From Ignavibacteriota bacterium (GTDB lineage Bacteria > Bacteroidota > Ignavibacteria > UBA10030 > CAVZMI01), in contig CAVZMI010000034.1 of the NCBI GenBank assembly GCA_963776275.1, positions 42,371-106,370 on the forward strand: a stretch of 64,000 nucleotides of DNA, given 5' to 3'. Numbering within the stretch: position 1 is the stretch's first letter; each line of letters starts with the position of its first letter. The position numbers were made by a program, and so were the translations under genes. The notes below the pieces were generated by a model. It was given only the letters and a program-made list of their open reading frames with translations, was not told the DNA's origin and searched no databases. Positions 3,649-22,495 of this stretch are shown piece after piece.

Positions 3649-3679
3649 CTAAAGTATATATAAATTTCCCGCCCCGTTT

Positions 3680-3880: not shown

Positions 3881-3967
3881 GATGATTTTCCGGAATATTT
3901 TTTCATTTAATGATCTGATTTACTCAAGGTTACAAGTCGTCGGTTTTTATCAACAAATATGAAATCA

Positions 3968-4099: not shown

Positions 4100-4100
4100 C

Positions 4101-7100
4101 TCATTCTTCCATAGAAAAACCATGAAATCCCACAACAGGCTTTTCGCCGCGCGTATCGGCGTTCTCCAATTCCATTTTAACTAAACGCTGCTCGCCGGGC
4201 ATAAGCGAAATATAATTATCGCTGTATATAACCGGTAAAATTCTCTCTCCGCTTTTTTCTCCCGTCACTCTCAACACAACCATCAGCGCGGGTTGATTGG
4301 TATTGTTTTTCAGACTGGTCGTCAAATACCAGCGGTTCCCTTTCTGTTCCACTTTTGTGTCCGAGTCCAATTTCACCTTTGGAAGTTTTCGAATCGCTTT
4401 GAGATCACCTTCTTCCAATCCGCGCCAGTAAAAATTTTCCGAGATCACTTCGCCGCCTCTTTCAAGCTTGAGTCTGATAAAACAAACGCGGCTCAGGCTA
4501 TCGGCAGATTCAATCCTGAAACAACGTATTATGCTGTCTTCCGGACAACTCATCGTTGTTTTCCTTTTTATTTTTACCGTTCCGTCCAGACCGATAATTT
4601 CCATGCTTGCCGTAAGCTCGCGACCGTTCGGAACGCTGTAATTAACAACTTCAATGCTGTCGCTCAATGGATTCCACTGAATATGCAGCGGTTCGCAGGC
4701 TTTCTTGCAGCCGAAATAAGCTGCTGTCGGCTCGAAGTAATAATCATAGGTTTGCCAGACAAGAGAAGGCCATGCAGGGTGGCTCATCCATAATAACATT
4801 CCCATCCTGTTCTTACCTTGAGCTTCAAACATTGCGCGATATCCCTGGTAATTCATCCACTGTGAGAATGAAAGCCACTCTTTCAAATCATTCATGGGTC
4901 CAAAACTTTCCTCAAGCTGTTGAATAAATGACGATCCACCTTGAGCACCATTCAGACAAAAATCGTGGATCCCCCACATGCGCTCCCGGGGCCATATTGC
5001 AGAATCGGGCATCATTTGTTTTAGACTTTCAAACGAGACGATGTCAGGCATCCCCATTTCACTGTGGAGTTTTTCCGTAGCCCTTTTTTCGAAATAAAAC
5101 TTTGTCGGCATTGCCCTATAGGGCCCTCCACCGCTCACCACTCCGAATGCCGAGTTTGATATGTAGTGCACATCCGGGTGTAATTCCTCCAATAATTTCC
5201 TGATTGCCGAATCTATTACCTCAGGCGGATTGCCTTCGTTACGCCCACAGTATAATGCGAGTGAGGGGTGATTGCGAATTCGCTTCACGAAGTCTTCCAC
5301 ATTCCGTACGAACATTTCATTGTCGCTTGGGTTCGGACCGTCTACCGGGTTCGCCAGCCAGAAATCCTGCCATATCATAATACCGTGGCGGTCACAAGCC
5401 TTATAAAATTCTTCATCGCCCGTCTGTCCGACCCAGTTTCTAATCATGGTGAAATTCATCTCTTTGTGATATCGTACTGCGATATCATACTCCCTTCCCC
5501 GATAACGAAGCATCGATTCGGAAAAACCCCAGTTGCCGCCTTTGCCGATGAACCTCCTGCCGTTAATCCAGATTTTCAAAATCCCACCATCTTCGGAGTA
5601 AATCATTTCTCTGATGCCCGTTGAAAACGAAATTGAATCCGATACTCGATCATCTGCAAGAACGAATGTAAGTTCAACATTATACAAATTAGGTTTACCG
5701 TATCCGTTCGGCCACCACAACGCGGGATTGTGCAAGTGAAGCGACGGGTGTGTAGAGGAATTAAATCTTACCCTCGCTTTTTCAGAAGCTTTAAGTGTAA
5801 CAGATTGTTCAAAAGCAACCCCGCTGAATTTACCTCGCAGCGTTCCCGTTACGCGTTCCGAGCTATGATTACAAAGAAGTGCTTCTATAGTTACATCAGC
5901 CGACGATGTATCCGGAAGGGGTAGTTTGGTTGAAATAAAAGGATTTTCAATTGTGACGGAGCCACTCACCGACAGGTAAACGTCGTTCCAGATGCCGGTA
6001 TTGCGTCCGCGTATAGTCGGTATCCAATCCCAGCCGATAGATGCATGAAAGGTCGGATTATCTGCACCAAGCTCGCCGCCGTTTGCATCGGGACTGAATT
6101 TTGTTTGTTCGGTGACAAATCCGGGTGCGGCATTTTTTTCGATATGTACAGCAATCACATTTTTCTTTCCAGTGATAATGATGCCTGAAACATCGAATTT
6201 GCCGCGCGTAAAAGCTCCTTCTATCCGCCCGAGCTTTTGTCCGTTCAGAAAAACTTCCGCTTTCCAGTTTATTCCATCGAAGTCAAGAGATATCCGTTTC
6301 CCTTTATAGGAAGCTGGAGCAATGAACTCGTCCCTGTACCAGAAATCCGAATAGAAGTAAGAATCCGAAATCATCAATTGATTATCTCCATAGTTCGGAT
6401 CGGGCAGAGCCCCCGCGTTGAGGTAACTGACAAGCACTGTTGCCGGTACGGTTGCAACAATCCAGCTGCTGTCATTGAATCCTGGTCTGGACAAAGCTTC
6501 ACCGTCGGCGTGAACCTGCGAGCTGCGCTGAAGCTTCCATGCACCTCCGGACAAATACAATTTCCCATCTTCTTTCACAGAAGGCTGGGCATGCGGGATC
6601 GCTACGGGACCACCCCTGCCGTACACTTCCAATTCACTTAAAATGTAATTGCTGTCTATAGCGGGCTTTTTTAAAAGTATGCGCACATACTTTCCTTTAA
6701 CAGGTTTGCTTAATTTAATATCATCGGTGTATCCCCAATTCTTAGACAGCAACATGACATCCTTCCAGTGCGTTGCGTCGTCCGACACCTGAATCGAACC
6801 GGCCACAGCGCGGTGTAACCAATAGAGAACAATTCGATCAAATGAACATTCAGCGCCCAGATCTACATAGACCCACTCCTCCCCTTTGCCTTCGCTCATC
6901 CATGCGCTGGAAAACTGGTATGCGTCATCCGATAATGGAACGTGTTCCGTTGGTGAACATGGCAAACTCGCCGATACCCCAACTCTTGGCATTAGGGGAA
7001 TGTAAATCAACCCGATAGAACCGGTGGTGAGACGGTTTCTTCAAATTAAAAGGATAATTGAATATTCGAAAGTTGGGCGGAAGAAATTTTCGGAAAAAAC

Positions 7101-7662
7101 CGGTAATAGTGTCTCCAGGGAGACCGCCACCGCTTACAGTACCCAATGTCTCCCAATTTCTCCCTTCATCAGAAACGCTTACAGCCATCTCCCAATGTTT
7201 AGGTTCCAGACTGTCAACCAGAAGGCTGCATGTTACAGCGATGCTATCCACCTGCGGGATAATACTATTCCCGCTAATTTCTACCTGAGTCCAGACATTC
7301 GGACCTACCAGATTTTTCCCTGTCATCATGTGACGATCCAAAACCCATTCTCTCTCGTTCTTTTTAGCTACTCCATCGCTGTAGGTCGTAACTACAAAGG
7401 GGGGAAGTTGTGATTCTTTTATTCCATCGGTAACAAGCTGCGCAGCCAGATTATAATCGTAACTGCTCGAATTGTAAGCCGGCCTGTGTAAAGCAAGGTT
7501 TCTGTACGTTGTATTATCTATTTTTATCGACGGAGAGAAATCTTCTTTTGCGTCCCCCGGGTATATACCCACGCCGCGTGTGTGCACCTGAGCCTTTGTC
7601 GTAGTGAAGACTAATATCGCAAGAAGAATAAAAAAGGTATGGAGTAGAGTCATTTTTTTCAT
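4101..7662 (-). CDS. Secreted GH2 glycoside hydrolase with discoidin/F5-8 type C domain (beta-mannosidase/exo-glucosaminidase-like); split near 6925
   Basis: WDWIP, GGNWG, MIRNW, NHPSLALYCGRNE, HSEMG; ORFs 6925..7662 (signal peptide) and 4101..7010 join. Confidence 0.88.
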
Positions 7663-7738
7663 AATACTTCCTGTCGAAACTGGATGATTGATACTTCTCT
7701 CCCCATCAATCTGTCAGCTCGTGAAGCAGAAGCTCTGC

Positions 7739-9605
7739 TTATGGTGCCTGCACGACGGTGATTTCAAACGGTTTTAAGTTCAATGAAACATCACTAATAA
7801 CAGGTCCGCCGAATCGCACGTAACTTGTATCCTGCTTCACTGATAGCTCCTTGTTGTTCACTGCTTCACGCCAACCGGAAGTCGGAACCTTCTGGATGAA
7901 CCTAAGCGTCATCGCCGCTGTTTCATCGCTCATGTTATAAAGGACATATTGCTTGTCGCCGAACAAGTACATGCCGACACCTCCGGGGCCATCCAACTCC
8001 GTTCCAAGTTCTCTTACGAAGGCACGTCGAATTAAATTCAGAGCCTGCGCGGGGAGACGCAGCAGATCGTAGCTGTTCTCCGGCATATTTAAGACGTATA
8101 TTCTTCCGTTGAGATACTGCACGTTAAAAAGGACTCCGAAGTCGTAGTCATCCTTCTCCACGGCTACATCGCGCGCGTAAGGCCAGGTGGTCGTTTCGAT
8201 GCGGGGGAAAGTGAAAGTCCTGTCCGCCTTGATGAGATCCTCCCGGAACCATCCTTCTCTCAGCCTGAATTCATCCAACGTCACGCTCCCACCGTAATCA
8301 ACCAGATTCAGAGTATTCTTGAATTCTGTATTCTGAAGTTTTTTCCAGAGCCCCCACGTCATAAACAGGTCTCTTCCTTCACGCAGTCGTACAAGCATCT
8401 CATCGGCGAGTCCGGGATCCTTGAGTGAGTGGAGAGTGAAGATTGCATTCTGACTTTGCGCCGGAAACTTTGCTACTGGAGTGAGCGGAATCCCCGCCAT
8501 GCCCAAATAACCGAAAATATTGTATTCGCCTGTAGAGCCGTAAGGCAAATAGATCGGGACTCCGCGCGAAGGACCGTTCAGCATTCCAGCAACTCGGTCG
8601 AACTCCTGCAGCTTATCGCGGAAATAAGGGTAAACGTCGCTTGACGGACCGGTTGCAGGATGAAGCTGACCTGCGCACCAGAGGATTATCTCCGGTGTCT
8701 GTGCAAGAACCGCCTGCCAGACCTGAGCATTGTAATCGTTATAGTCTCCCTTCATATCGTAATTGTCCAACCACGAGCCGACCCACTTGGAGGAATCGAC
8801 GCTTGAATACCATTTCTGGAAAATATAACCGCTGTAGATCGGTATATGCTGGTCGTGATTCATTCGATTCCGTGTTTCGATGCCGACGGCCATATTATCA
8901 AATAGATGAGTTTCGTTGTAAACGTCGTAACCGTTGTCTCCGAATCCTTCGTACCAGTTCGGGTACTTGATGATGATCCTGACCTCAGGATTTACTTGTT
9001 TGGCTGGAGCGATAATATATTTTTTAGATTGTTCGAGCAATAGTTTTGTGCGGTATTCGGCCCAGGTTTGATTGCCCCGTTCTTCGTAACTTTTCGGATC
9101 AGTAGCCAATGTGAAGAGCCAGTCGTCGATAATGATATCGTCGAAGATCCCAGCCAGCGCGCTCATTCGTTTCTCGAGGGCTGCCATGTCCCTGGGGTCG
9201 TTGTAGGTCAACGGACACTTGTGCTCCGAACGGCACCATTCCTCCTGAGACTCTGATACCCATGGCCCGAAACCTGTCGGCGATTTTTTTCATCATTGGA
9301 ATATCTATTTCTCCGCGGGTGGTCCCTTCGAGATATACATGATTAGCTTTTATCGGTGCGAAGTATTCCATCGTCTTCTGGAATTTAACAGGATCGGCGA
9401 GAAGCGAATCGATATCCCGCGATGTGAAGTAGATCGCGTACTTCAAGTGCGGCCAGCCCGCTTCGCTCGTCTCGCCTTCGGCTCGCCGAAGCGAACGAGG
9501 CGAGCCCGCTATCTTGCTGTTCTCTTGACCGTGAGCAAAGCGTGTACCCAGAAGCAGGATGGATATCAGTCCGAGGGTAAAGTATTTTGGAATTGTATTT
9601 TTCAT
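7739..9605 (-). CDS. Secreted conserved hypothetical protein, possibly a glycoside hydrolase-like TIM barrel; split near 9215
   Basis: Signal peptide; IIIDDWLF, IIKYPNWY, GIETR; ORFs 9099..9650 and 7739..9211 join; co-oriented with the GH2 gene. Confidence 0.6.
9455..9510. repeat. Palindromic REP-like element, in frame inside the CDS
   Basis: Nested stems GCTCGTCTCG/CGAGGCGAGC and CTTCGGC/GCCGAAG; AGCCCGCT repeated 48 bp apart. Confidence 0.7.
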
Positions 9606-9659
9606 CACACACTCCTTGCTGAGTCTATTGGAATAGTCATATTGTTTCAATGTGTTTCA

Positions 9660-9752
9660 CCATAATCAGCTTATCCGGCATCAAAAAAAAGTCGAAAGCA
9701 TTCGGGGAAAGGTGATGGTAGTGTAGGAAGAAGCTTTTAAAAATGCAAGGAG
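9660..9752. repeat. Island-flanking direct repeat, left copy (contains a minus-strand promoter)
   Basis: Matches 16336-16425; 36 bp exact core 9717-9752 = 16390-16425. Confidence 0.92.
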
Positions 9753-9848
9753 AGAGTAAAAATCCTCAGAGATTTATGATTGCCCGCGTTTAATAGATGC
9801 AAAGTCAATTCCGCCGTAACGGAACCGACCCTGCCGTCGTTGTTCCAT

Positions 9849-10133
9849 TTATCTAATAAATATTAATTTCTTAGTCCGAACCATATCTCCCGCTCGAAGT
9901 CTGTAAAAATAAAATCCCGACGCCAGATCTTGTGAGTTAAACTTATAAGAATATTTCCCGACAGATCGCTCTCCATCAATCAAAACTGCAACTTCTTCAC
10001 CGATCAAATTGAACAAAGTCAGCCGAACATGCGACGTGATATTGTTTCTTAATATAAGCATTAATATCGAATTTTCTTCTGGGACATTATTACGATTACA
10101 ATATAAAAAGTACAAATTGAACTTACCTTTCAA
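9849..10133 (-). pseudogene. Isolated T9SS type A C-terminal sorting domain (remnant)
   Basis: VRLTLFNLIGEEVAVL...LASGFYFYRL...KKLIFIR, with no upstream passenger domain. Confidence 0.65.
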
Positions 10134-10216
10134 ATCACTTAACTTACAAGTAGAATAAGAAAGTCGTATTTAAATAATACAAGGATTCTATGGATTCGGG
10201 GATAAACACCATATAA

Positions 10217-10954
10217 ATGAATGATAACATGAAAAAAACTAGGACTATTATACACCCTGCGAGAATTATCAAAAAACCAGTAGCTATCCCTCAAATTGTT
10301 AGTCTTCGGAAAAAGGCTATTCAAGCCACTAAAATTCTTCGTTCAATTTACCATTCACCACAGCATAACAATAAACAAGACCCACTCGATGAGATCGTGT
10401 TCATTATACTGTCCCAAATGACAACATATCGGAGTTTCGAACGAGTATTTGACCGGCTAAAGAAAATCGCTCCAACTTGGGAAATGGTTCGTCGGATGCA
10501 GCTGAAGCGGCTGAAGAGACTCATCAAGGATGCGGGGCTTAGCAACCAGAAGGCACCTCGAATAAGGGCGGTATTGAACAGACTGCGGAATGACTTTGGT
10601 AGGGTAACGCTAGAGCCGCTTAGGCAAATGAAAACCAGTGATGCCGAAGCCTATCTGGTTTCCCTCCCCGGAGTACAAATGAAGAGTGCAAAGTGCGTAT
10701 TAATGTACTCATTGAAACGCAAAGTTCTCCCAATTGATACTCATGTACTGAGAGTAGCACGTAGGCTCGGGCTCTTGGATGATTTGGTCATTTCAGAGAA
10801 GGCTCATCGGCGACTAGAAGCAATAGTTGAACCTTCGTTTCGTTATGCATTCCATGTTAATTCTGTCTCTCACGGTCGATCGATTTGCCTTACGGCCAAC
10901 CCACGTTGTCCCTTGTGCAGGCTGAAACGACTTTGCGATTACTACAAAAAGTGA
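10217..10954 (+). CDS. Endonuclease III-like HhH-GPD DNA glycosylase with 4Fe-4S motif
   Basis: IILSQMT, HhH LPGVQMKSA, PIDTHV, C-x6-C-x2-C-x5-C (CLTANPRCPLCRLKRLC). Confidence 0.88.
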   Translation: MNDNMKKTRTIIHPARIIKKPVAIPQIVSLRKKAIQATKILRSIYHSPQHNNKQDPLDEIVFIILSQMTTYRSFERVFDRLKKIAPTWEMVRRMQLKRLKRLIKDAGLSNQKAPRIRAVLNRLRNDFGRVTLEPLRQMKTSDAEAYLVSLPGVQMKSAKCVLMYSLKRKVLPIDTHVLRVARRLGLLDDLVISEKAHRRLEAIVEPSFRYAFHVNSVSHGRSICLTANPRCPLCRLKRLCDYYKK

Positions 10955-11045
10955 TCTAGGGGCATTGCTTGATTTCGACATACGGCGCCTACACCCTGTG
11001 GTGAGCAATGTCCGGTTGTGACCTCCGATGGGTCAGAGGACTAAA

Positions 11046-11645
11046 ATGGCCAATCAGAAAATAGATGATGAAAACGAATTTCTCGAGAGTGAAGACGACT
11101 TCAACCGTGAACTCGAAATAGCTATAAGAGAAGCATACCCAGCCCTTCTCAATAGGGTCAGGACTGCGGGGTTTGCAGGCTATCGCCGACGCTTGGGTTT
11201 GGAAAAGGATCTAGCCGATGAGGCAGTCTTCCATTTTATAAAGCATTGTAAACGCAAACACACGCTCCCTGACAATGCACTTAAATATCTTGTTGCCATT
11301 GCCCGCAATATCGCAAAGAAAGAGTACCGCAACAAGGATAGGATTACCCCTCTATCCCGAAGGAGTGTATCCAGTTTATCTATCGCTGAACTTACAATAA
11401 CGGAGGACATACAAGAGGTTGAATTGGAAGGGGACGAGGCTTCATACCAGGAGATACTCATGGAGAAAGTTCGCATCATGATTGAAAAACTGCCCCCCAA
11501 GCAGCGGAAAGCGGTTAAACTCCATATAGAAGATCCAGCAGCAACACAAAAGCAGCAGGCCGAAAGAATGGGTGTAGATGAAGGCGCTTTTCGAAAGGAT
11601 CTTACAAGGGCAATGGATAGACTTAAACGGGAACTGAATCCTTGA
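11046..11645 (+). CDS. ECF-like sigma70 factor
   Basis: Region 2-like YLVAIARNIAKKEYR; region 4 HTH LPPKQRKAVKL...QAERMGV...DLTRAMDRL; GAGGA RBS. Confidence 0.75.
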   Translation: MANQKIDDENEFLESEDDFNRELEIAIREAYPALLNRVRTAGFAGYRRRLGLEKDLADEAVFHFIKHCKRKHTLPDNALKYLVAIARNIAKKEYRNKDRITPLSRRSVSSLSIAELTITEDIQEVELEGDEASYQEILMEKVRIMIEKLPPKQRKAVKLHIEDPAATQKQQAERMGVDEGAFRKDLTRAMDRLKRELNP

Positions 11646-11710
11646 GTACGACAGAAAATGTCCGGTATGCGACTCCATTGTTATGTGAATAAAAAAAAAG
11701 GAGATCAAAA

Positions 11711-12928
11711 ATGGAAGAAACAGCAAAACCAAATCAGACAAGCCCTTTTGAATCTACCCCACCACCGATTCTTAGCTGGGAAGGGCAAAAGAATTGGCAG
11801 AAGCCCCGATTCGAGGCGAGGTACTTCCACCGTAAACGGATCGAGGTTTGGAACGGATATGTACGAACTAGGGATGTGAAGGGATGGGTTGACAATGTTC
11901 GGATCGAGCTATTCGTTGAAAAATGGAAGCGTGATAATCATGGATTACCTCCAGGTAACGAAGATATACTTCAATGGATGAAGAACGATCCCTACGATGA
12001 GTTTGATCTGAAGAGCCTGGGAGAGAGCATTGTGAATAATGGGGTCAGACAACCTATCGTGGTGACAAGTGATGGCGTACTCCTCGATGGAAATCGACGC
12101 TACTTCGCTGCATTGATGATGCTGGAGAAGTCTGAACAAGAACACGCCCCTGATATCTCCGAAATGGTAAGCCAGCTCCCGGCTTATGTCTTGAGTCCCA
12201 CCTGCGAACCTTCGGAATATGACTCAGTGCTTGTCGAGGAGAATTTTGTCGATGATTGCCGCCGAGAATGGCCCAATTTCATCAAAGCTAAGAAAGTCTT
12301 CGAAGCGTACGGTGAAATGAGGGAACGGGGCAAATCACGTTCAGAGGCTCTTTCAGATTTGGTCGTTCGTTTTGGCATTTTACGCAGTCGAGCAGAGAGA
12401 TTCATCAAAATGATGGATCTAATCCAGGAGTTCCATGACCATCATTCCACTAACGACGAGGAATCCGGCCAGCAGGCCAAGGACGAGTATGAGGTTAGGT
12501 GGAGAGCACAAAAGTATTTCGAATACTTCGACGAGTTACATAAGACGCGAGTATTGAACACACTCGACAATGATCCGGAGCTGAGAACCAAGGTGTTCGA
12601 AAGGCTTTACGATGGCGACTTCTCTAGCTTCGCTCAAATAAGGAAAGTTCCAGAAATCGCAGCTGACCGACGTGCACGTGATAAGTTCATTTTAGGCTCG
12701 GGCAAGCGAGCAGTTGATGAGGCAATCGAATGGGTTACAGTCGTGGGCGTCGCAAAGAAAGCACTCAACAACAACGACCGCATAACGAGCTTCTTGCGCT
12801 TTTTGTTGAGCTTGACAGCTGAAGAAATGGAGAACCTAGATCCTGTTGCAATAACTGAACTAAAGAATATTTCGACGAAGGTCGCTGATATGGCCAACGC
12901 CGCAAAGGGAGGTGAAAAAGATAATTGA
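11711..12928 (+). CDS. ParB/Srx N-terminal domain protein
   Basis: LGESIVNNGVRQPIVV...LLDGNRRY; GGAG RBS. Confidence 0.8.
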   Translation: MEETAKPNQTSPFESTPPPILSWEGQKNWQKPRFEARYFHRKRIEVWNGYVRTRDVKGWVDNVRIELFVEKWKRDNHGLPPGNEDILQWMKNDPYDEFDLKSLGESIVNNGVRQPIVVTSDGVLLDGNRRYFAALMMLEKSEQEHAPDISEMVSQLPAYVLSPTCEPSEYDSVLVEENFVDDCRREWPNFIKAKKVFEAYGEMRERGKSRSEALSDLVVRFGILRSRAERFIKMMDLIQEFHDHHSTNDEESGQQAKDEYEVRWRAQKYFEYFDELHKTRVLNTLDNDPELRTKVFERLYDGDFSSFAQIRKVPEIAADRRARDKFILGSGKRAVDEAIEWVTVVGVAKKALNNNDRITSFLRFLLSLTAEEMENLDPVAITELKNISTKVADMANAAKGGEKDN

Positions 12929-14667
12929 AAGAAGCACTCGGCTTAATAGACATAGATCAAAGCGACATCGCGTTTGTTTGCAAAACGCTGTCGCCATACA
13001 ATCGCCGTAAATCAATTGAACTAATCAGGAGGGTAAATCCCTCCGCCAAGATTTCCATTGATGGAACTCTCTTGAGATTCAGTGTCACGGATGCGGTTGC
13101 CCTGCGGGCCAGTATCGACAGCTCTGAGTTCACCTGGTCGGAAAATGCAGCCATGTGGATAACAACCTTCTCTCAGAATTACTCAAACCTAAGTCGCTCC
13201 CGTCGACGTCTTTGGGAACTACAGAGACATGGCACTGCTAAGAAGTTGCTATCAGATTATTCTAATTTCACGAACCTTGATGAGCATCAGATCATTGCTG
13301 TTGCCGCCATGACGGATAAGACCATTACTGGCATATGCTTGTTCGACGAGCAAGGCCTTGGAAAAACAGTCATGGCTATTCATTCTTTTGATCGCCTCAA
13401 GCAGGAGAGTTTAGCGGATGCGGTCTTGATATTTGCACCCAAAAACATGTTGGAGGAGTGGAAGAAGGATTTCGAACGATTCATGGGTGGAAAGTATAGA
13501 ATCCAGATCCTCTCGGGTGAACGGAGAAAGAAGTACCAGTCACTTCTTGAGAGCGCTGACGTGTATATTACAAATTACGAGACCGCCTACTCCCTAGAAG
13601 ACTCCTTGCGTTCCATTCTCAACAGGAAGATAGGTAAAGTTGTTCTCGTTGTTGATGAGAGTTTCTACATAAAAAACCGAAATACGAGGCGGGGTATAGC
13701 CATTAGACGACTACGAAACCTATGCGAGCGGTGTTGGGTTCTATGTGGAACGCCTGCACCTAACAACGCGCTCGATGTGGTGCATCAGTTTGAAGTAGCA
13801 GATGCTGGTGCTACTTTTGCCGGTGTTGAACTTCCAAAAAATGGAAAGAGACTTCAAGAGGTCATCAAGACCACAGTGGAGTCGAGAGGCGTATACTTGC
13901 GTCGACTGAAACGCGATGTTCTTCCTGAATTGCCCGCGAAGCAGTTCGAGCTAGTTGTCGTACCGATGGAGTCAGAACAGCAGAGTCTCTACGGAAATGC
14001 ACTCCGATTGCTCGTTAAAGACGTGAAGGCTTCGGATGAGATAATCTTCAATAAACAATATGCATCATTCTTGTCACGGAAGATGAAGCTACTTCAAATC
14101 TGCAGCCATCCGGGGCAAATCGTCGATCAGTACCAAGGCTTACCAGCAAAGATGGTGGCATTGGATGGTCTACTGCGTCACCTTATAGACGAAAACGGCG
14201 AAAAGGTCGTTCTGTGGTCCTACTTTCGATACACAATTGATCAATTGATCCGGAGATACGACCTATATAAACCGGTAAAACTCGATGGTAGTGTACAAGA
14301 CACTACAAAACGGTCTCAAGCAATACGCAGCTTTCAAGAAGATAGTGAAACAATGCTCTTTGTCGGTAACCCTGCTGCTGGTGGAACTGGTATCACTTTG
14401 ACACGATCCTGCACCATGATCTATGAATCTTTCTCACCACAGACAGCACATTACCTCCAAAGTCTCGACAGGATACATAGAAGAGGCCAAACGCGTGATG
14501 TGTATTACTATGTTTTGCTATGTAAAGGCTCGATCGAAGAAGATGAGTACGAGAGATTATTGAGAAAAGAAATTCAATCAGCCGAGTTATTCAGTGACCC
14601 GTTGCCAGAAGCGACACCGAGAGAAGTGTTCCTTGAGGAACTGATCGGTGCTTTGAAGAAACTCTAG
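12925..14667 (+). CDS. SNF2-family helicase/ATPase
   Basis: DEQGLGKT, VVDES, LCGTP, RRLKRDVL, GTGITL, QSLDRIHRRGQ; TTGA overlap with upstream stop. Confidence 0.92.
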   Translation: MKEALGLIDIDQSDIAFVCKTLSPYNRRKSIELIRRVNPSAKISIDGTLLRFSVTDAVALRASIDSSEFTWSENAAMWITTFSQNYSNLSRSRRRLWELQRHGTAKKLLSDYSNFTNLDEHQIIAVAAMTDKTITGICLFDEQGLGKTVMAIHSFDRLKQESLADAVLIFAPKNMLEEWKKDFERFMGGKYRIQILSGERRKKYQSLLESADVYITNYETAYSLEDSLRSILNRKIGKVVLVVDESFYIKNRNTRRGIAIRRLRNLCERCWVLCGTPAPNNALDVVHQFEVADAGATFAGVELPKNGKRLQEVIKTTVESRGVYLRRLKRDVLPELPAKQFELVVVPMESEQQSLYGNALRLLVKDVKASDEIIFNKQYASFLSRKMKLLQICSHPGQIVDQYQGLPAKMVALDGLLRHLIDENGEKVVLWSYFRYTIDQLIRRYDLYKPVKLDGSVQDTTKRSQAIRSFQEDSETMLFVGNPAAGGTGITLTRSCTMIYESFSPQTAHYLQSLDRIHRRGQTRDVYYYVLLCKGSIEEDEYERLLRKEIQSAELFSDPLPEATPREVFLEELIGALKKL

Positions 14668-14684
14668 CTTTATGATATCGATAA

Positions 14685-15994
14685 CTATTTTATTTCCCGG
14701 CTCTTGTCTAGAATGAGGATATGTTTAGAAATGATATCGCGGCGATGGCCGTTGTTACCCAACCAATTACGCGCTTCCTTCGGATTTTTATTGCGCCGCA
14801 TCCTTGCCGGGTTTAACATTGTATGAGGTCGATCTGAGAGACGATCCAATAGAGTCAGGTTATGACAAACGATAACCCCTCGTAGTTTATGAGTTTTCGC
14901 GCTCTGCATGGCTTTTTTTATTGTTTTTCCAATTACCTCTCCTAACCCCACCGGTACAGCATTGCCAATTTGTTTGTATTGTTCAGAAATGCCACCCGCA
15001 AATCGCCAGTTATCTGGGAATTGTTGGATGCGAGCATATTCCCTTACACTCAGTGGTCGAAGTTTTGTGGGGTGGCACAACAAGGTTGCTTTGTAGGTGG
15101 GATGTGTCGTTAGTGATGGTGCTGGTCTCTTCCATGAAAGTCTTCTGAAGAAACCACTCCTCCCCCCCACGAGTCGTATGCTTTGCCGAGTGCCTCCTCT
15201 TGTACACCAGGTTTTAAGTCTCTCCAGTTGCCACCTTCGGGTATGTGCTTTAAGTACTTCTTATATGTCGGTGGCAATGGAGTATATTTTTGACTCTTTT
15301 CCCTCAACCCCTTAAGGGCTTCGTGCAACCCGAACCAAGGAAGGCGCCCCTTTTTTCTACTTTTAGAATGAGAAGGTTTTATGAACCGCAAATCTTCTCC
15401 ATCTCGTGAACCAATAAATACAACGCGTTGTCTTGACTGAGGTACGCCATAGTCAGCTGCATCAAGTAAGTCAAAAACTATATAGTAACCAGTCTTCTTT
15501 AGTTCTCTAAGAATTAATGCAAAAGCTGATCCTAATTCCTCCTCGATCGTCAGTGGCGGAAACCCTGGTCATCGTCTCTTAAGTTGGCGATGCTTAATGG
15601 CAGCGGAAAGAAGTCCTTTTACATTCTCCATTACAAAGAACCGTGGTTTTGCTTCATTAATAACTCTTAAAAATTCTTTGAACATTTTCCCACGTGGATC
15701 GCCAACTGATCCTCTTTGTCCTGCTGTACTGAATGCCTGACAAGATGGTCCTGCAGCTACAATAGCAATATCACCAATTCCAAGACCCGCTGCCATCAAA
15801 AGTTCTTTTGTAGATACATCCTCTATTTTATTTTCAAAAAGTTTGATGTCTGGTCGGTTAATGCGGATTGTCTCCGCTGCATGTTTGTTACACTCAACCG
15901 CAACACGAACATTAAAACCAGCCTTCTCAAGACCAATATCAAGCCCTAATGCTCCTGAGAATATAGATATTATAGATTTGTTTCTCTTGCTCAT
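14685..15994 (-). CDS. DNA (cytosine-5)-methyltransferase, SinI/Eco47II-like; in-frame TGA at 15569-15571 and a homopolymer frameshift near 15165 (probably sequencing errors)
   Basis: Motif I FSGALG, IV GPSCQAFS, VI ENV, VIII QSRQR, IX REYARIQQFP, X QIGNAVP spread across three ORF pieces. Confidence 0.92.
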
Positions 15995-16335
15995 GTAGGA
16001 ATCTTAAAGAAATATATGTTCATCTTGTAGCTTCATCAAGACGGTTTATTAAGAGTGCGTTTTCTGTTGTAGATAACTGAATATAATTAAAGTACGAGAG
16101 TGTACATTTACTTTATAGTCCCTTCGCATCCCTGAGCTTCCCATCAGCATTGTCTGTTTCAAATCCTGCATCACTTTCTCAATCGTGTAAGATGAGTGCA
16201 ATACGCTTACATAATTACATGCCTCGGTTTGATGTCCCTAGTTCTAAAAAATATATCTGTTTTTTGCTGTGAAAGCAAGCCTATCGACGCCTCCTACAAT
16301 TTTGAAAGATTACGTCCATTCCGGTTGCCTTGCTT

Positions 16336-16425
16336 CCATATCAGCTTATCCGGCATTAAAAAAAGTCGGAAGTATTCGGAAAAGGCGAAGGTAGTGTAGG
16401 AAGAAGCTTTTAAAAATGCAAGGAG
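16336..16425. repeat. Island-flanking direct repeat, right copy (minus-strand promoter TTGCAT-N17-TACACT)
   Basis: Matches 9660-9752. Confidence 0.92.
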
Positions 16426-16498
16426 GAGGTCAATATTGATTGATAATTCTCATCTCTTTAATCTCATCGCCAACCTGAATCTGATCCATGTACTATAA

Positions 16499-17902
16499 TC
16501 AAAAATAGGGCCGCATCCGGTATTTCATTCCAAGCGTTTTCTCGATGAACTCTTTTGCTTTCTCCTGATCCACTTCATCCATACCTACGATGCTCATAAC
16601 AACCTCGGGGAGGTATTTCTGGCATTCCCTGGCGAACTCGAGTATTGCGGTATAGAAACGGGGACCGTCGATACGCATCAGGCGGCCGTACTGTTCGGGA
16701 TCCGTGGAATTCAGGCTTATCGATACACTATCGATCAATCCCACAAGTTCCGGAACTATATTCCGTTTATTGATAACGCTGCCGTGTCCATCGGTGTTGA
16801 GGCGGACTTTTCCACCGTGCTCTTTGACCCATCGTGCAATATCTTTCAGCTCATCGAGGCGAATCGTCGGCTCACCATACCCGCAAAAGACAATCTCATC
16901 GTATTTTGTCGGATCGCCGATTTGGTCGATGACTTCCTGTGCGGTCGGTTCCTCAGTGATGCGAAGATTATGTCCTTTTATGACTGCCTCGCCTTTGCGA
17001 TCGCAGAAAACACAATCAGCATTGCAGCGGATCGTCAGGTTAATGTATAGAGCATTCTTGAGCTCGTACACGATCCGTGGCGGATCGAGGCTCCCGATGC
17101 CGAATAACTTTTTTGCGTTATACGACGTTGTCCGCTCTACATCTTTTATCGTTGCGTGCAATATTTCAGCGATTTTTTCTGCAACAATTTTCACGTTTGC
17201 CGGTTCGTTCCGCCGGCCGCGGAAAGGGACGGGAGTAAGATACGGGGCGTCGGTTTCAACCATTATATAATCATAACTGATCTTTTTCAGCACATCGACG
17301 GTACTGGAATTTCTAAACGTTACAATTCCCGGAAACGAAATCAGAAAACCCATCTCAATGAGCTTCCAGGCTGTTTCTGCATCCCCTGCATAACAATGGA
17401 ACACTCCCTTATGAATCGGGACCTTACCGTCCGATCCCGTCGTTCCACTCCGCCATTTCGGTTCCTGAGCGATCGTTTCCTCGACGATACGGATGGCATT
17501 ATTAAGTGAATCGCGAGTGTGAATCACCACCGGGAGATTTCTCCGGACAGCAATACGAAGCTGCTCGCGGAACACATCAACCTGAGTCTCACGGGGAGAA
17601 AAGTCGTAATAGTAATCGAGTCCGATCTCGCCGATAGCGACCACCTTCGGGTGCTTGCTTATTTGTTCGATTTCTTTGAGTGATTCCGTTGTGGCCTTGC
17701 CTGCATCATGGGGATGGAAACCGACACAGGCATAGATCATGTCGTATCGTTCTGCCAGATCGATAACGGTTCGGCTGGTTGCATAGTCAACTGCCGGCAC
17801 AACAATATATTCAATACCGGCTTCGCGTGCACGAGCGATAACTTCATCGATATCACCCTGGAATTCGGGAGAATAAAGGTGAGCATGTGTATCTATAAGC
17901 AT
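16499..17902 (-). CDS. tatD: TatD family hydrolase fused to a TatD-associated radical SAM domain
   Basis: DTHAH, GEIGLD, HTR, HCY, ETDAP; C-terminal CNADCVFC and CGYGEP. Confidence 0.9.
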   Translation of the reverse strand: MLIDTHAHLYSPEFQGDIDEVIARAREAGIEYIVVPAVDYATSRTVIDLAERYDMIYACVGFHPHDAGKATTESLKEIEQISKHPKVVAIGEIGLDYYYDFSPRETQVDVFREQLRIAVRRNLPVVIHTRDSLNNAIRIVEETIAQEPKWRSGTTGSDGKVPIHKGVFHCYAGDAETAWKLIEMGFLISFPGIVTFRNSSTVDVLKKISYDYIMVETDAPYLTPVPFRGRRNEPANVKIVAEKIAEILHATIKDVERTTSYNAKKLFGIGSLDPPRIVYELKNALYINLTIRCNADCVFCDRKGEAVIKGHNLRITEEPTAQEVIDQIGDPTKYDEIVFCGYGEPTIRLDELKDIARWVKEHGGKVRLNTDGHGSVINKRNIVPELVGLIDSVSISLNSTDPEQYGRLMRIDGPRFYTAILEFARECQKYLPEVVMSIVGMDEVDQEKAKEFIEKTLGMKYRMRPYF

Positions 17903-18020
17903 GGAACAAGAATATTCTTATGATTGAACTTTTCTTTAATATACCAAGCACGGCCCTGAGAGGCAAGCGGAGAGTGTCGCTGTCAGATATGAGAATATAA
18001 AAGCAGATATTTCACATTTG

Positions 18021-18707
18021 TCAATGCGGATAAATTTTTCCTATTCCATTGACTGTTTTATTTACAACCGGCGGATTGCCTTCATACACAATACTTCCAA
18101 CACCATTAATTTCAGCATTTAATTGTTGTGTGACATGAACTTCACAATTTCCTGTCCCGTTAATGGTGGCTGTACACACGGAGGAAACCAAACCGAAATT
18201 GCTGATATTTCCCGCCCCATCGATGAAAATCGTTTGAGTGCTGGCATCTCCGTCAAGTGAAATATTTCCGGCACCCTCGATCCGGCATTTCACCGCATCG
18301 CAATGAATCGGGTTAGTAGTAGTAATATCTCCCGCTCCGATAATTTCAAGGTTTTCGATTGTCGTCAGGGTGACATAAACTCTAACCGTAGTGTTGGTGT
18401 ATGATCCTTCATCCAATCCTACGATCAGGTATCCGTTTTCACACCGTGTGACTACTCTGTCGATAATATTATCGTCGGCCTCAACCCGTATGCTCTGATG
18501 GGTGTCTTGTGTCAGATATACTTTTGCCGATCCGACGATCTGTACGCTCTGACAAGGCTGAACGACTCGTTCCTCGGATACAGTCCTTCCCGAGCCGACA
18601 ATGGATTCGCTGTCTTCATAATTATGATGGTGATGAAAACAGCCCTGAGTAAAGATAGAGAGCGTAATAATAAGAATAGCGGATATAATTATTCGGCGAT
18701 ATTGCAT
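18021..18707 (-). CDS. DUF2807 / head GIN domain lipoprotein
   Basis: Lipobox TQGC; repeated I.GAG.I beta-solenoid motifs; YEGNP. Confidence 0.8.
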   Translation of the reverse strand: MQYRRIIISAILIITLSIFTQGCFHHHHNYEDSESIVGSGRTVSEERVVQPCQSVQIVGSAKVYLTQDTHQSIRVEADDNIIDRVVTRCENGYLIVGLDEGSYTNTTVRVYVTLTTIENLEIIGAGDITTTNPIHCDAVKCRIEGAGNISLDGDASTQTIFIDGAGNISNFGLVSSVCTATINGTGNCEVHVTQQLNAEINGVGSIVYEGNPPVVNKTVNGIGKIYPH

Positions 18708-18817
18708 TGTGTGTTCCTCACTGGATGATGTTTTATTCTTATCACTATTCATATACGTAAAATTGGGCAACCTGTTTCAGAATTACTCTTTAATAATTGC
18801 TTTATCCAGGATTTAAG

Positions 18818-21010
18818 TCACAAAAGTGCTTCAACCGTCAGTGTAAATCGTCGTACTGGCGCGATATTACCAATCAATTCCACATAATAATATTGAAAGA
18901 TATTATATGCATTAAACGTAATACGTGCAGGGATGCCATAATGCGATCCGTCGAACATGAGACGGGCATCAGTGACATAGATAGGGACCCGCAGGTCTCC
19001 GTCTTTGACTATGTTGAGTGTGACAAACTCCCTATCGATCCTGTCGATTTTGCTGATAAACCGGAAATCGATTCCGGCGCTGAACGATCCGATGGTTGCG
19101 TCGAATCCGGCCATGAGTACATGGCGGGGTCTGTATTTTAAAAGGTCATTAAGCGTAAGGTCGCGCGGATAGACATAGGTGTAGGCAAGCTCGGCCTTGA
19201 GGAGATTATGGAATAATGAGGATTGAAGGTGAACTTCTCCGCCGAGGATACGTGCGCGTGTAACATTATTAAACTGTCCGAATGATTTTCCTCCGATGAC
19301 AACAAAACGGGGCTCGATCATATCCCAGAACTCATTTTGAAAAAGTGCGCAATCGACAGCGACATCGGATACTATCCGAGCGTTCAACCCGATTTCTATT
19401 GACAAGCTTCGTTCAGGCTGAAGCGAAGGATTCGGGATGATGGTGAGTCCGCCGGCACTCGTGACCGTGAATGTTTCGCCGACCGTCGGTACACGAAATC
19501 CGCTCCCGGCCGATGCCCTGACAATGATCCCCTCGGACAGCGTCGCGGTCAGACCGAGTTTCGGATTGAAGCGCGAAAAAGCCGAAAGAGAATCGATTTT
19601 TTGATAATCATATCGAGCACCCGCGGTAACATGCAGCGAAGTCATGATTGCATATTCATCCTGGATGTAGAATGCCCCACCGCCTCCCGATCGTTTGCCA
19701 AAAATGTTCGCATCGACCTTATCGATTCGTCCTTCTATACCCGCCGTGAGATAATGCTGCGGATGAATCTGAGTTTCAATCTGCACTTCGTTAACAAAAA
19801 GGTTTGCCAGCGACTTATTCCCCACTCCATTGATGTTGCCGACATTATCCTCCCAGTCAGTCCGGTACCACATCGATTTGAAAGTGAATGAAAGATCCTC
19901 TGTGAGAAATGTTTTAAAATCCGAGCTGACATTCACCCGTGTCGTTTTTACCCATTCACCAAGCTGATCTTCCTGCGGCTGAAGCGCGTGATAAATATCG
20001 CGCCAGAAGAGAAAGCTTCCTGTCCGATGGGAATAGAAGTTAGTACTCAAAGTCCAGCGGGTGAACGGACTGAATTCATACCCGGCTTTCGCATAGAAAT
20101 TCAAACGTCGGGCATAATCATTTTCACGGTATCCATCATCGACCGTACGATTTGCCGAGAGCGCCAATGTAAGCTTATCGAAACGCTGTGTATGAGTAAG
20201 ATATAGACCGGCCTGACCCCGCGTTACAGAGGACCACTTCCATTCATCGTAGAGCGGACGGTCATACACACTCAAAAAAGTCTTTATCACAGTCACAGGT
20301 TGTGATTCAACTTCTTTCGTAATAATATTGATAACCCCCCCGAGCGCATTCGATCCGTACAGTGCCGATCCGGCTCCTTTCACAACTTCGACCCGATCGA
20401 TGCTCATTACCGGAATGGATTCAAAAATAATCTCGCCCGTATCGCCGGTGAGATAAGGGATCCCGTCGAGCAGCACCAGCACGCGGCTTCCGATTCCGCG
20501 GGCATATCCGCTCGATCCGCGGATGTTGATTTGCCATTGCGTCATGTTGACGCCGGGGATATATCGCAGCGCTTCGTCCATGGTGATAATATTCCGTGTG
20601 CGAATCATCTCGGCTCCCATTACGGCAACAGTCGTCGGTACATCCTGAATATTCTGTTCATGCTTTGCTGCAGTTATAACGACGGGTTGAGTTTGAACAG
20701 GCTGGGGTGTCAGCAGAATCGTGATCGTGCTAATTGAGTCTTTCGCAACACGGACGTTCACGACTTTTTTCGTGGCGAAACCAACCATGGAGACTTCAAG
20801 AGTAAAAAGCCCCGGAGGCACTCTTTGGAGTGCAAATTCGCCCTGTGTATTTGTAGTACTCCCCAGCAGAGTACCATGAACGGAGACTGAAACACCGAGA
20901 AGCGGCGATCCGTCCTCATCGGATCTAACAACACCCCGAAGCGTACCGTTCTGTGCTAATGATATTTGATGGAATACTATCAGTGCAAAAATGAAAGAGT
21001 ACCATCTCAT
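18818..21010 (-). CDS. TonB-dependent receptor
   Basis: N-terminal CarboxypepD_reg-like domain, plug IDRVEVVKGAGSALYGSNALGGVINI, NPSLQPE. Confidence 0.92.
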   Translation of the reverse strand: MRWYSFIFALIVFHQISLAQNGTLRGVVRSDEDGSPLLGVSVSVHGTLLGSTTNTQGEFALQRVPPGLFTLEVSMVGFATKKVVNVRVAKDSISTITILLTPQPVQTQPVVITAAKHEQNIQDVPTTVAVMGAEMIRTRNIITMDEALRYIPGVNMTQWQINIRGSSGYARGIGSRVLVLLDGIPYLTGDTGEIIFESIPVMSIDRVEVVKGAGSALYGSNALGGVINIITKEVESQPVTVIKTFLSVYDRPLYDEWKWSSVTRGQAGLYLTHTQRFDKLTLALSANRTVDDGYRENDYARRLNFYAKAGYEFSPFTRWTLSTNFYSHRTGSFLFWRDIYHALQPQEDQLGEWVKTTRVNVSSDFKTFLTEDLSFTFKSMWYRTDWEDNVGNINGVGNKSLANLFVNEVQIETQIHPQHYLTAGIEGRIDKVDANIFGKRSGGGGAFYIQDEYAIMTSLHVTAGARYDYQKIDSLSAFSRFNPKLGLTATLSEGIIVRASAGSGFRVPTVGETFTVTSAGGLTIIPNPSLQPERSLSIEIGLNARIVSDVAVDCALFQNEFWDMIEPRFVVIGGKSFGQFNNVTRARILGGEVHLQSSLFHNLLKAELAYTYVYPRDLTLNDLLKYRPRHVLMAGFDATIGSFSAGIDFRFISKIDRIDREFVTLNIVKDGDLRVPIYVTDARLMFDGSHYGIPARITFNAYNIFQYYYVELIGNIAPVRRFTLTVEALL

Positions 21011-21534
21011 TGATGAAAGTCCTCCTGAAATGGTTGTGGAGGAGGATTACTAAAATCGACAAGGATATCGATACCGGGAACGACCTGATCGGTGGGAACG
21101 ACTAAATCTTTCGTTTCGTTGGTTCCACTCCCGCCATCGTATACGCCGATAATTCTCCAATCAGCGAAAGGATTTGTTCCGAAACGCTGAACCACAGCAA
21201 TATATCGATAGGTAGATGCTGGAACAGGAAACTCATAAGGCACGGAATCATGTCCCATTGGAAGTCCGGATTCAGCCGGCGGCGGATAAATTTTCACCGA
21301 ATCTGTATTGACTACGAGTGCGATGATCTCGGTAAATGACGTAAATTTACGCCATGCCTGAGATGCAATAAGACGCAATTCCAGTGTATCTTGCGGCCAT
21401 GTCCCGTGAAACCGGATAACACCGCTAAAACCCGGCTGAACCGGACGCGACGGCCCAAGGCCGTGATCGCAGCCGCCAAGGGAAAAAAGAAATGCGAAAA
21501 AGAGAGGGAGCAGTGTTATGAGTCGTTTCATCAA
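21007..21534 (-). CDS. Hypothetical lipoprotein
   Basis: Lipobox LGGC; ATGA overlap with the TonB-dependent receptor gene. Confidence 0.7.
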   Translation of the reverse strand: MMKRLITLLPLFFAFLFSLGGCDHGLGPSRPVQPGFSGVIRFHGTWPQDTLELRLIASQAWRKFTSFTEIIALVVNTDSVKIYPPPAESGLPMGHDSVPYEFPVPASTYRYIAVVQRFGTNPFADWRIIGVYDGGSGTNETKDLVVPTDQVVPGIDILVDFSNPPPQPFQEDFHQ

Positions 21535-21599
21535 TGCAAAAAGTAGTAATTGCTGAAGCGAAAGTCAAGAGTGAAGAGATAGGTTAAGGGAAAGGTTAA

Positions 21600-21660
21600 C
21601 CCTTCGCCTTTCCGCCTACGCTCCGCTGGTGCGGAGCTTCGGCGGATCGCTCAGGGCAGG
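21600..21660 (-). repeat. Nested REP-like element inside a GGTTAA-type tract
   Basis: Reverse complement CCTGCCCTGAGCGA-[hairpin]-AGGCGAAGGG. Confidence 0.7.
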
Positions 21661-21679
21661 GGTTAAAGTTAAGGTCGAA

Positions 21680-22495
21680 TCATATTTTCCTTAATAAATA
21701 AACATCCTGTTTCTGATTGGCATTTTTTCCTCCCGGCACATAATCGACAAGTTCAAATCCAAACAGAAGGTTATCTTCTAAAAATTTCTTCGTTTGATAC
21801 GTAGCGCACTTATTATCCCCCTCAATATTCTGATTCAGCGTCAGTATCCCATAGCGTTCCAATACAGCCTTTTCAGCGGGAGTAAATTTTTGGAATGTAG
21901 TTTCTCCATGAGTCGTAAGATAAATATATCCTCCCTTTCTGAGAACTCTATGGAATTCAGTAGTCCATTTTTTTTGCAGCTCGACGCTTAAATGTGTAAA
22001 TACAGACCGCGCATAAAGAAAATCGAACATCGAACTCTCATACGGAAGCGGTGGCGCCAATGTATTGGCATGGAATTTCGCAAACGGTAGGTTGGCGGAA
22101 CACCACCGTATCAATTCCGGATTATAGTCGGAACCGTGGAGATGAACCGTATTTGAATGCGGAAGAAAATGTCTGATAATTCTTCCACAGCCGCATCCGA
22201 AATCAAGTATCGAATTGAATGAACGAATATCAACCTTATTTTTTCCCAACAAAGCTTTCATATCATCAAATATCTCTTTCCCCAAATAATAATACACCGA
22301 TACCCATGGCAGTCCGATTATCAGGAATATCAACCGTAATGGAGGAGCCGGATAACCATCGGGTAATCCTTTTCGGCGGTATGAATATTCGTCTAAAAAG
22401 ACCCGGGGTGAAAAAGATTGCAGCGAATGATAGATTATTCGAATTAGATCTAGGAGGCCTATCGTTCTTAATAACTTTTTTAATTTGTTTTTCAT
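21680..22495 (-). CDS. Class I SAM-dependent methyltransferase
   Basis: ILDFGCGCGR, SVFTHL, RVLRKGG. Confidence 0.88.
   Translation of the reverse strand: MKNKLKKLLRTIGLLDLIRIIYHSLQSFSPRVFLDEYSYRRKGLPDGYPAPPLRLIFLIIGLPWVSVYYYLGKEIFDDMKALLGKNKVDIRSFNSILDFGCGCGRIIRHFLPHSNTVHLHGSDYNPELIRWCSANLPFAKFHANTLAPPLPYESSMFDFLYARSVFTHLSVELQKKWTTEFHRVLRKGGYIYLTTHGETTFQKFTPAEKAVLERYGILTLNQNIEGDNKCATYQTKKFLEDNLLFGFELVDYVPGGKNANQKQDVYLLRKI

Follow-up and report, generated by a model that had tools for sequence, protein, structure and literature searches.

A candidate AbiR-like immunity cassette, with its own methylase and repair glycosylase, in a strain-specific island of an Ignavibacteriota bacterium

Proposed Function of the Cassette

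A 64,000-nucleotide stretch of an Ignavibacteriota bacterium (contig CAVZMI010000034.1 of assembly GCA_963776275.1; the whole stretch is hereafter called the window) carries a strain-specific island that holds five genes, encoding a DNA glycosylase, a sigma-like protein of the extracytoplasmic function (ECF) type, a ParB-fold protein, an SNF2-family ATPase and a cytosine-5 (C5) methyltransferase. The reading favoured here, held with rather more confidence than doubt and drawn by analogy, is that the island is an AbiR-like, methylation-gated immunity cassette gained by horizontal transfer. The copy in the window is a nuclease-less variant of the AbiR-like kind, equipped with its own methylase and repair glycosylase; the kind itself is not new.

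The proposed mechanism combines the published genetics of AbiR with the domains of the encoded proteins. The first-pass annotation of this DNA had suggested that the methylase marks self and that ParB and SNF2 act on unmarked DNA, a division of labour that fits AbiR as a review describes it, toxic when the methylase is missing (PMC13064643). In this scheme, the C5 methyltransferase would mark the host's own DNA, and the sigma-like, ParB-like and SNF2 proteins would act together, as a single complex powered by NTP, on incoming DNA that is unmethylated, and halt its replication. The cutting would fall to a small protein with a PD-(D/E)xK motif, which about half of the relatives encode. The copy in the window, lacking the nuclease, would block replication without cutting, use an activity that has escaped recognition, or be a weakened form. 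The glycosylase would remove T from the T:G mismatches left by deamination of 5-methylcytosine, as Vsr does elsewhere.

Likeness to AbiR

AbiR of the L. lactis plasmid pKR223 is described in a 2026 review as a set of three genes, AbiRa/AbiRi, AbiRb/AbiRii and AbiRc/AbiRiii (PMC13064643). The structures predicted there are a sigma70 factor, a ParB protein and a protein that joins an N-terminal restriction-endonuclease-like domain to a C-terminal SNF2/INO80-like ATPase, and the three proteins are predicted to form a complex (PMC13064643). AbiR requires the methylase of the neighbouring LlaKR2I restriction-modification system, in whose absence it is toxic, and it impairs phage DNA replication by a mechanism that the review calls still unexplained; the review treats it as the oddity of one plasmid (PMC13064643).

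By design, and as far as the review's description goes (PMC13064643), AbiR and the cassette have in common proteins of the sigma70-like and ParB-like kinds and an SNF2-type ATPase, together with a methylase, on which AbiR depends. AbiRii is superimposed in the review on PDB entry 5K5D (PMC13064643), an entry that is also a Foldseek match of the window's ParB-like protein. All three AbiR-type proteins are found in the window, namely a sigma70-like protein (by TIGR02937), a ParB fold (by AlphaFold2 and Foldseek) and an SNF2 ATPase (by Pfam). The protection of dairy lactococci by AbiR, a phage-resistance system, was shown more than 20 years ago, and M.LlaKR2I is a GATC-specific C5 methylase.

The differences lie in the methylase, the repair enzyme and the nuclease. 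AbiR borrows its methylase from a neighbouring restriction-modification system, whereas the methylase here lies within the cassette and without a cognate restriction enzyme. The window's cassette also includes a T:G repair glycosylase as an added component. Finally, AbiRc has an N-terminal restriction-endonuclease-like domain, whereas in the present family the nuclease, where relatives have one, is a separate small protein. The statement of the first-pass annotation that no described system has this set did not hold, given the sigma-like, ParB-like, SNF2 and methylase design of AbiR. No paper naming the five-gene set was found in the literature searched, a scope that does not extend to supplements, which may list AbiR homologues. 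Plasmid SNF2 matches were also considered as a route to AbiR and rejected, the best Firmicutes matches (H14 and H18) being unrelated large SNF2 genes with no ParB or sigma neighbours.

Conservation of the Cassette across Phyla

The cassette was traced with a 23-sequence ParB alignment, which yielded 24 loci when compared with one genome per species; a scan of IMG/VR yielded one more. The 25 distinct loci include the window, with L014 and L015 counted once, and their components were mapped by clustering of open reading frames (ORFs) and then by comparing hidden Markov models (HMMs) built from the clusters with six-frame translations. The loci span more than 10 phyla, including Acidobacteriota, Actinomycetota, Chloroflexota, Nitrospirota, Planctomycetota, Verrucomicrobiota, Bacteroidota, Thermodesulfobacteriota, several proteobacterial lineages and others. 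The conserved co-occurrence of the five genes that had been supposed from one sequence is thus borne out, with a unit that recurs across phyla in the 25 loci examined.

The sigma-like gene lies directly upstream of the ParB gene in 25 of 25 loci, and a C5 methylase specific to the family is linked in all 24 assessable ones, the contig of L009 stopping inside the SNF2 gene so that its methylase cannot be assessed. SNF2 follows directly downstream of ParB in 22 of the 25 loci, and the three exceptions are from Dehalococcoidia. The earliest start codon of SNF2 overlaps the ParB stop by 4 nt in the window, and likewise in L010, L011 and L012. The 113 ORFs that flank the cassettes match 99 Pfam families, none of them in more than four members, and include integrases, Tn7-like genes, a resolvase, a Bpu10I nuclease, type IIG enzymes and AbiE. 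A P4-type integrase gene adjoins that of the methylase in L022 and in L028, and in L024 and L025 integrases are encoded no more than a few kb away. Because these flanking ORFs hold no further shared partner, the cassette is self-contained, in settings that vary and are often rich in mobile or defence genes; it is a conserved and mobile unit and not a chance neighbourhood.

In L021, direct repeats of 110 nt (96% identical, at 2121-2230 and 13638-13747) bound an 11.5 kb stretch that contains the cassette, a type ISP-like enzyme and an IS91-type transposase fragment, a layout that parallels the island in the window. The metagenome-assembled genomes of L014 (Methylophilaceae) and L015 (Melainabacteria) contain a common contig of 6731 nt, 100% identical and holding only the cassette, which suggests either faulty binning or a mobile element left unbinned.

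The ParB-Fold Protein and Its Sigma-like Neighbour

The third gene of the cassette (11711..12928, + strand) encodes a 405-aa NTP-binding protein of the ParB/Noc/KorB fold with a helix-turn-helix (HTH) domain. The Pfam ParB_N match, at 18.7 bits, is under the cut-off, and the assignment comes from an AlphaFold2 model with a predicted local distance difference test score (pLDDT) of 87.6 and a predicted template modelling score (pTM) of 0.74. Foldseek matched this model to ParB, Noc, KorB and Spo0J with probability 1.0 and E values from 2.9e-4, PDB 5K5D standing at rank 22. Because all ten matches at E <=0.001 are ParB, Noc, Spo0J or KorB and span both the nucleotide-binding and the HTH domains, the modelled protein is a true ParB-family switch protein, more than a ParB/Srx nuclease domain. 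The motifs LLDGNRR, NF, WP and FEYFDEL are invariant in the 23 aligned homologues, and LLDGNRR occupies the position of the nucleotide-binding GERR box of ParB. The family is small, with 126 clusters at 90% identity in one collection and 121 clusters at E <=1e-30 among 1.84 billion representatives, nearly all of them unnamed. In L016, a second and divergent ParB-like paralogue (5782-7008, - strand) matches the family HMM at E 9e-102 and is separated by a few kb from the ParB of the cassette.

The sigma-like protein (11028..11645, + strand) matches TIGR02937 at 59.2 bits, over a cut-off of 42.9, and covers positions 8-165 of the 165 in the model, with both ECF regions, sigma2 and sigma4, present. 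Regions 2 and 4 recur throughout the family, with weak Pfam matches in the distant members, and the three sequence clusters into which these proteins fall are mutually homologous (hhalign probability 96-98%). In most of them an acidic, D/E-rich tail follows region 4 (L010-L012, L014, L016-L018, L020, L021, L023, L027-L030 and L032); the proteins of the window and of L009 are without it.

Physical coupling of the components is hinted at by three fusions, each a single case among the 265 collected family proteins, two of them fragments. In P0159 (738 aa), a sigma-like N-terminus (E 5.6e-8 to the family sigma HMM) is fused to ParB; the fragment P0218 joins the methylase C-terminus to ParB, and the fragment P0066 joins the ParB C-terminus to the SNF2 N-terminus. 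No fused form scored in a search of proteins of 710-2025 aa. The predicted complex of ParB and the sigma-like protein scored 0.47, the best of three controls reaching 0.18, in runs with a contact agreement of at least 0% and a partner pLDDT of at least 60. Of 80 solved complexes 58 reached the mark used, as did 2 of 110 mismatched pairs; only 7 of the 80, and both of these mismatches, did so at <=0.60. The support lent to the pair is weak.

It had been proposed that the sigma factor makes the system inducible, and no evidence was found for this. Because the sigma-like protein is universal, is encoded beside the ParB gene and is fused to ParB in P0159, the data point instead to a structural partner of ParB. 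No candidate for a cognate anti-sigma factor was identified; that the ParB-like protein could serve as one is put forward as an idea. A preprint describes bacterial fusions of a ParB-CTPase fold with Sigma70, together with ATP binding by such proteins (10.1101/2025.10.10.680097). By that description, P0159 is a comparable sigma-like/ParB fusion; they differ in that the relevant passages of the preprint mention neither a role in defence nor a setting with SNF2 or a methylase (10.1101/2025.10.10.680097).

Upstream of the sigma gene, five related loci from different phyla (L022, L025, L026, L028, with two copies, and L030) have a non-coding motif, CTGTTGCGCC-N4-GACTA-N-CGG, whose first half resembles a parS half-site. 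It sits within about 140 nt of the annotated sigma start, the copy of L025 lying 10 nt inside the gene. The motif does not occur in the window, and no parS-like site was identified.

The SNF2 Motor and the Small PD-(D/E)xK-Motif Protein

The SNF2-family ATPase (12925..14667, + strand; Pfam SNF2-rel_dom at 103 bits, plus Helicase_C) is a minimal motor preceded by an N-terminal region of about 115 aa. The motifs GLGKT, DESF and HRRGQTR are present, and the nearest solved relatives by sequence are ISWI, an archaeal Rad54-like protein and INO80. The N-terminal region (residues 1 to about 115-125) has no Pfam match, no PADLOC match at E values up to 10, and few conserved residues.

A point overlooked by the first-pass annotation is a small protein of about 145 aa that is common in relatives and missing from the window. 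Its gene follows SNF2 in 10 of the 20 loci that have SNF2 and downstream sequence. The protein has no Pfam match, and no PADLOC match up to E 10. In its alignment an invariant P-D-V is followed, about 13 residues on, by (D/E)-A-K-x-T-E, which is the PD-(D/E)xK signature. In the model (pLDDT 87.6), the residues of the motif fall within strands 52-56 and 61-67 or just past the second of these, and these may be read as the strands used by the PD-(D/E)xK core. VIA-align gave its best Z score, 8.0, to an unrelated RNase P protein, and placed PD-(D/E)xK nucleases (LHK-Exo, NucS, FokI and AF1548) at Z 5.8-6.5 among methyltransferase-like folds. On its sequence motif, the small protein is a probable nuclease.

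One rather doubtful proposal is that the nuclease-less form confers non-cutting immunity, a methylation-gated silencing of invaders. Loading of a ParB-type, NTP-gated clamp would be confined to DNA without the 5-methylcytosine mark of the cassette; the clamp would be held by the sigma-factor-like partner, possibly tied to RNA polymerase, and would spread with the SNF2 motor along foreign DNA, blocking replication or transcription. If true, such silencing would draw on two folds, one familiar from chromosome partition and the other from transcription factors.

Another explanation, which appears quite improbable, dispenses with restriction altogether and makes the cassette a modification machine, in which the ParB NTPase and SNF2 load or drive the methylase and the sigma-like protein links it to transcription as an epigenetic regulator. 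Models for it would be DpdB assisting DpdA, or SNF2-coupled eukaryotic methylases. The half of the copies that have no nuclease, the fusion of the methylase C-terminus to ParB in the fragment P0218 and the conserved C-terminal extension that the methylases of the family have in common would all suit such a machine, as would the working parts kept in the three SNF2-less loci and the role described for DpdB, a ParB-like ATPase that helps to insert a DNA modification (PMC12839542). It is harder to reconcile with the patchy distribution of horizontally transferred islands beside integrases and other defence genes, with the PD-(D/E)xK-motif protein in the other half of the assessable loci, and with the AbiR precedent, for which the review reports toxicity without the methylase (PMC13064643).

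The C5 Methyltransferase and the Quality of the Assembly

The methyltransferase gene (14685..15994, - strand) is broken as assembled. Its end at 14685 lies 17 bp away from the stop of SNF2 (14667); the earlier observation that four co-oriented genes converge on a C5 methyltransferase across a 17 bp gap was correct as to both the ORFs and the gap. The coding sequence is split over three frames (15994-15569, 15391-15110 and 15170-14685), a point that the first-pass annotation had left unstated. One lesion is an in-frame TGA at 15569-15571, where the homologues have Gly; the other is a G-run at about 15161-15167, within the conserved SWGGRSGF, which has seven G and needs eight to stay in frame. 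Intact homologues align over the full length of the gene, in two frames and through a stop, and the catalytic GPSCQ and the ENV motif are present in that alignment. The use of TGA as a glycine codon was considered and rejected, the other long ORFs of the window being normal under table 11. A second C5 methyltransferase (a 414-aa ORF, about 33% identical) is encoded elsewhere in the genome (G000 contig C23, about 232430-233458, - strand).

The quality of the assembly can be gauged against a genome of the same genus (G001), with which about 18 kb is shared at 94-96% identity. Six single-base indels were found in coding DNA, at 6923, 9217, 23113, 24394, 25147 and 25503. The first four split ORFs of the window (969+245, 490+183 and 163+455+157 aa) that are intact in G001 (1186, 621 and 731 aa), and the second split gene is also open, at 681 aa, in a relative from another family. 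Frames therefore break about once per 3 kb where the comparison can be made, as would be seen in an error-rich assembly or a pseudogene-rich genome. At this rate, it is no surprise that the methylase gene has two lesions and the remaining 4.3 kb of the cassette has none; the lesions more probably stem from a poor assembly than from genuine mutation. The broken methylase would look like a pseudogene if taken by itself, but because the assembly carries so many frame-breaking errors, it cannot be called one. No RNA run with the sequence was listed; a public DNA run (X1, which contains 12% of the sampled words) gave short contigs of low depth that cover the island in part and do not reach the G-run; one of them spans 15549-15731 with a single differing letter, and does not settle the TGA.

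These lesions also bear on the unlikely alternative that the island is a decaying remnant, with the methyltransferase truly inactivated, the nuclease gene lost and the rest no longer a system. Two independent lesions within 1.3 kb of the methylase gene are what decay would leave, and the missing small nuclease gene, the gene fragment and the roughly 450 bp without coding sequence at the left end of the island and the divergence of its repeats to about 87% identity would agree with it; disruption of the methylase also recurs, in 4 of 24 loci, once by an insertion sequence (IS) element. However, the sigma, ParB, SNF2 and glycosylase genes are full-length with their conserved motifs intact, the frequency of indels relative to G001 makes the two lesions unsurprising, and a copy without the nuclease is common among the assessable loci.

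The Glycosylase and T:G Repair

The glycosylase gene (10217..10954, + strand) encodes an HhH-GPD / 4Fe-4S DNA glycosylase (Pfam HhH-GPD, 46 bits). Its best NCBIfam match is a model of a monofunctional glycosylase, at a score far under the cut-off of that model, and it matches a REBASE-derived PADLOC model named 'Type II nicking endonuclease' at E 5.6e-12. Asp174 is kept, as is the C-x6-C-x2-C-x5-C iron-sulfur cluster (C224/231/234/240).

A gene for T:G repair occurs in 17 of the 25 distinct loci, 14 with the glycosylase family of the window and three (L012, L013 and L029) with Vsr in its place. Six loci (L010, L011, L020, L021, L031 and L039) have neither; these counts leave out L026, which has a glycosylase remnant, and L009, whose contig ends early. 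The glycosylase gene mostly adjoins that of the methylase in related loci. Because Vsr replaces it in three loci and it mostly adjoins the methylase gene, the glycosylase is best read, from sequence and gene order, as a functional equivalent of Vsr and a putative partner of the methylase in the repair of T:G mismatches from 5-methylcytosine deamination. Of the two roles first suggested for it, this repair gains support from the Vsr swap, and an attack on modified phage DNA found none. An apparent additional gene family (c14) was rejected as an antisense shadow of the glycosylase gene.

Pairs of Dcm and Vsr, and HhH-GPD mismatch glycosylases linked to methylases, likewise couple a C5 methylase to a predicted T:G repair enzyme; they correspond to one sub-module of the cassette only.

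The Island, Its Repeats and Its Insertion Site

The island (9618..16484, 6867 bp, no strand assigned) was delimited by blastn of the window against G001. Its flanks, window 1073-9617 and 16485-22614, are collinear with that genome at 94-96% identity, with no alignment in between, and it interrupts a series of neighbouring minus-strand genes. The description of the block as repeat-bounded proved right, with direct repeats at 9665..9763 (left) and 16340..16436 (right), neither assigned a strand, enclosing all five genes. The pair aligns over 99 columns at about 87% identity with two 1-base gaps (BLAST E 2.5e-27), and the 3.70-Mb assembly has just these two full copies, the next match being of 41 nt (E 3.5e-4). 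The repeats may be diverged attachment sites. As previously noted, no integrase and no restriction nuclease is found among the ORFs of the island by Pfam, PADLOC or NCBIfam.

The same intergenic site is occupied in G001 by an unrelated insert of 2.0 kb (L037 8542-10544, opposite window 9618-16484) with two other ORFs (345 and 283 aa) and without a copy of the repeat; the site is a variable hotspot. The ParB family of the window was found in none of 200 other genomes of the same order. Because the island is absent from G001, its ParB family is absent from these genomes, and integrases, Tn7-like genes or defence genes lie beside some relatives, the island is regarded as horizontally acquired.

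Such mobility raises the question of whom the cassette serves. The possibility that it acts for a mobile element (in partition, establishment, anti-restriction or post-segregational killing) and not in host defence is given very little credence here. It would find some backing in a ParB fold that matches partition and plasmid-repressor proteins, in the repeats that bound both the window's island and the stretch in L021, and in the integrases near L022, L024, L025 and L028. Against it, the cassette has no ParA or replication gene, most loci lie in long chromosomal contigs, and a tblastn comparison of the ParB family with 72,556 plasmids and 50,697 phage records found nothing at E 1e-5, the scan of IMG/VR giving a single locus. 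When the threshold was relaxed to E 10, the plasmids and phages gave only short matches to the ParB box, none of them in Lactococcus. A ParABS system was also sought, and neither the island nor the cassettes of the related loci contain a ParA-type ORF.

At the left end of the island, an orphan fragment of 94 aa (9849..10133, - strand) matches the type IX secretion system (T9SS) C-terminal sorting domain TIGR04183 at 29 bits against a cut-off of 23. It has no upstream body and is probably a gene remnant outside the cassette. Beyond the right end, 16499-17902 (- strand) is a single ORF of 467 aa with a full TatD DNase domain (274 bits) and a radical SAM domain (66 bits), conserved in G001.

Comparison with Other Defence and Modification Systems

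Submitting the island to PADLOC, a check proposed at the outset, matched no system and left the sigma-like and ParB proteins without any match. The SNF2 protein matches the models of ZorD, DpdE (E 1.2e-35) and DrmD (best E 2.2e-21), all generic, and the methylase those of type II, DrmMII (E 7.6e-43) and DruM.

DISARM also combines an SNF2 helicase with a C5 methylase in one defence locus. It differs in having no sigma or ParB component, and the SNF2 of the window scores better with the ZorD and DpdE models. DrmA (helicase), DrmB (DUF1998) and DrmC (PLD) are not in the island, where PADLOC finds only the DrmD-like and DrmMII-like matches, and no other ORF of the island is of a size suitable for the DISARM core. 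As for type I Zorya, ZorA, ZorB and ZorC have no match in the island, and the SNF2 protein matches only the helicase part of ZorD (positions 444-868 of 908).

The Dpd system pairs a ParB-like NTPase with a DNA-modifying enzyme and an SNF2-like helicase, and DpdB is described as a ParB-like ATPase that aids the insertion of the modification (PMC12839542). The present cassette differs in its C5 methylation, its lack of a transglycosylase and of 7-deazaguanine genes, its DGNRR motif and its ParB/KorB-like HTH body. Neither a DpdA transglycosylase nor a DpdB with the DGQHR/DGQQR motif was found in the island.

Points Weighing against an AbiR-like Role

Several results count against the reading of the island as an AbiR-like immunity cassette. 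The likeness to AbiR is one of design, the parts having been compared by published description. The assembled sequence gives a dead methylase beside four other genes that are intact, a state in which the logic of AbiR predicts toxicity. L010 and L020 likewise have a split methylase, and in L023, a Dehalococcoidia locus with no SNF2, a DDE transposase interrupts the gene; as a single case, this sole clearly disrupted methylase in an SNF2-less locus fits a need for SNF2 in toxicity. That three Dehalococcoidia loci do without SNF2 also counts against the reading.

No nuclease domain is recognisable in the window's copy of the cassette, and the small protein was found neither in the window nor elsewhere in the genome, which is 96% complete. 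For the small protein of the relatives, Foldseek gave nothing at E <=0.001, so that its fold is not settled. PADLOC gave nothing for the sigma-like proteins at E values up to 10, and for the ParB family only weak PD-Lambda-5_A and PDC-M38A matches in 2 of 23 members, none of them the ParB of the window. To these may be added the lack of ParB matches among the plasmids searched and the nature of the genes that flank the island in the window, none of which is a defence gene by Pfam.

Significance

For the source genome the lesson is a smaller one: it carries one more copy of the cassette, nuclease-less and in an error-rich assembly. The wider interest lies in the family. The design of AbiR is seen as a self-contained mobile cassette in the window and in 24 distinct relatives from more than 10 phyla, and the PADLOC version searched is blind to its specific parts. 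The cassette combines three protein folds that are more familiar from transcription, chromosome segregation and the remodelling of chromatin, and its nuclease-bearing and nuclease-less copies, standing side by side, amount to a natural experiment on the cutting versus the blocking of DNA.

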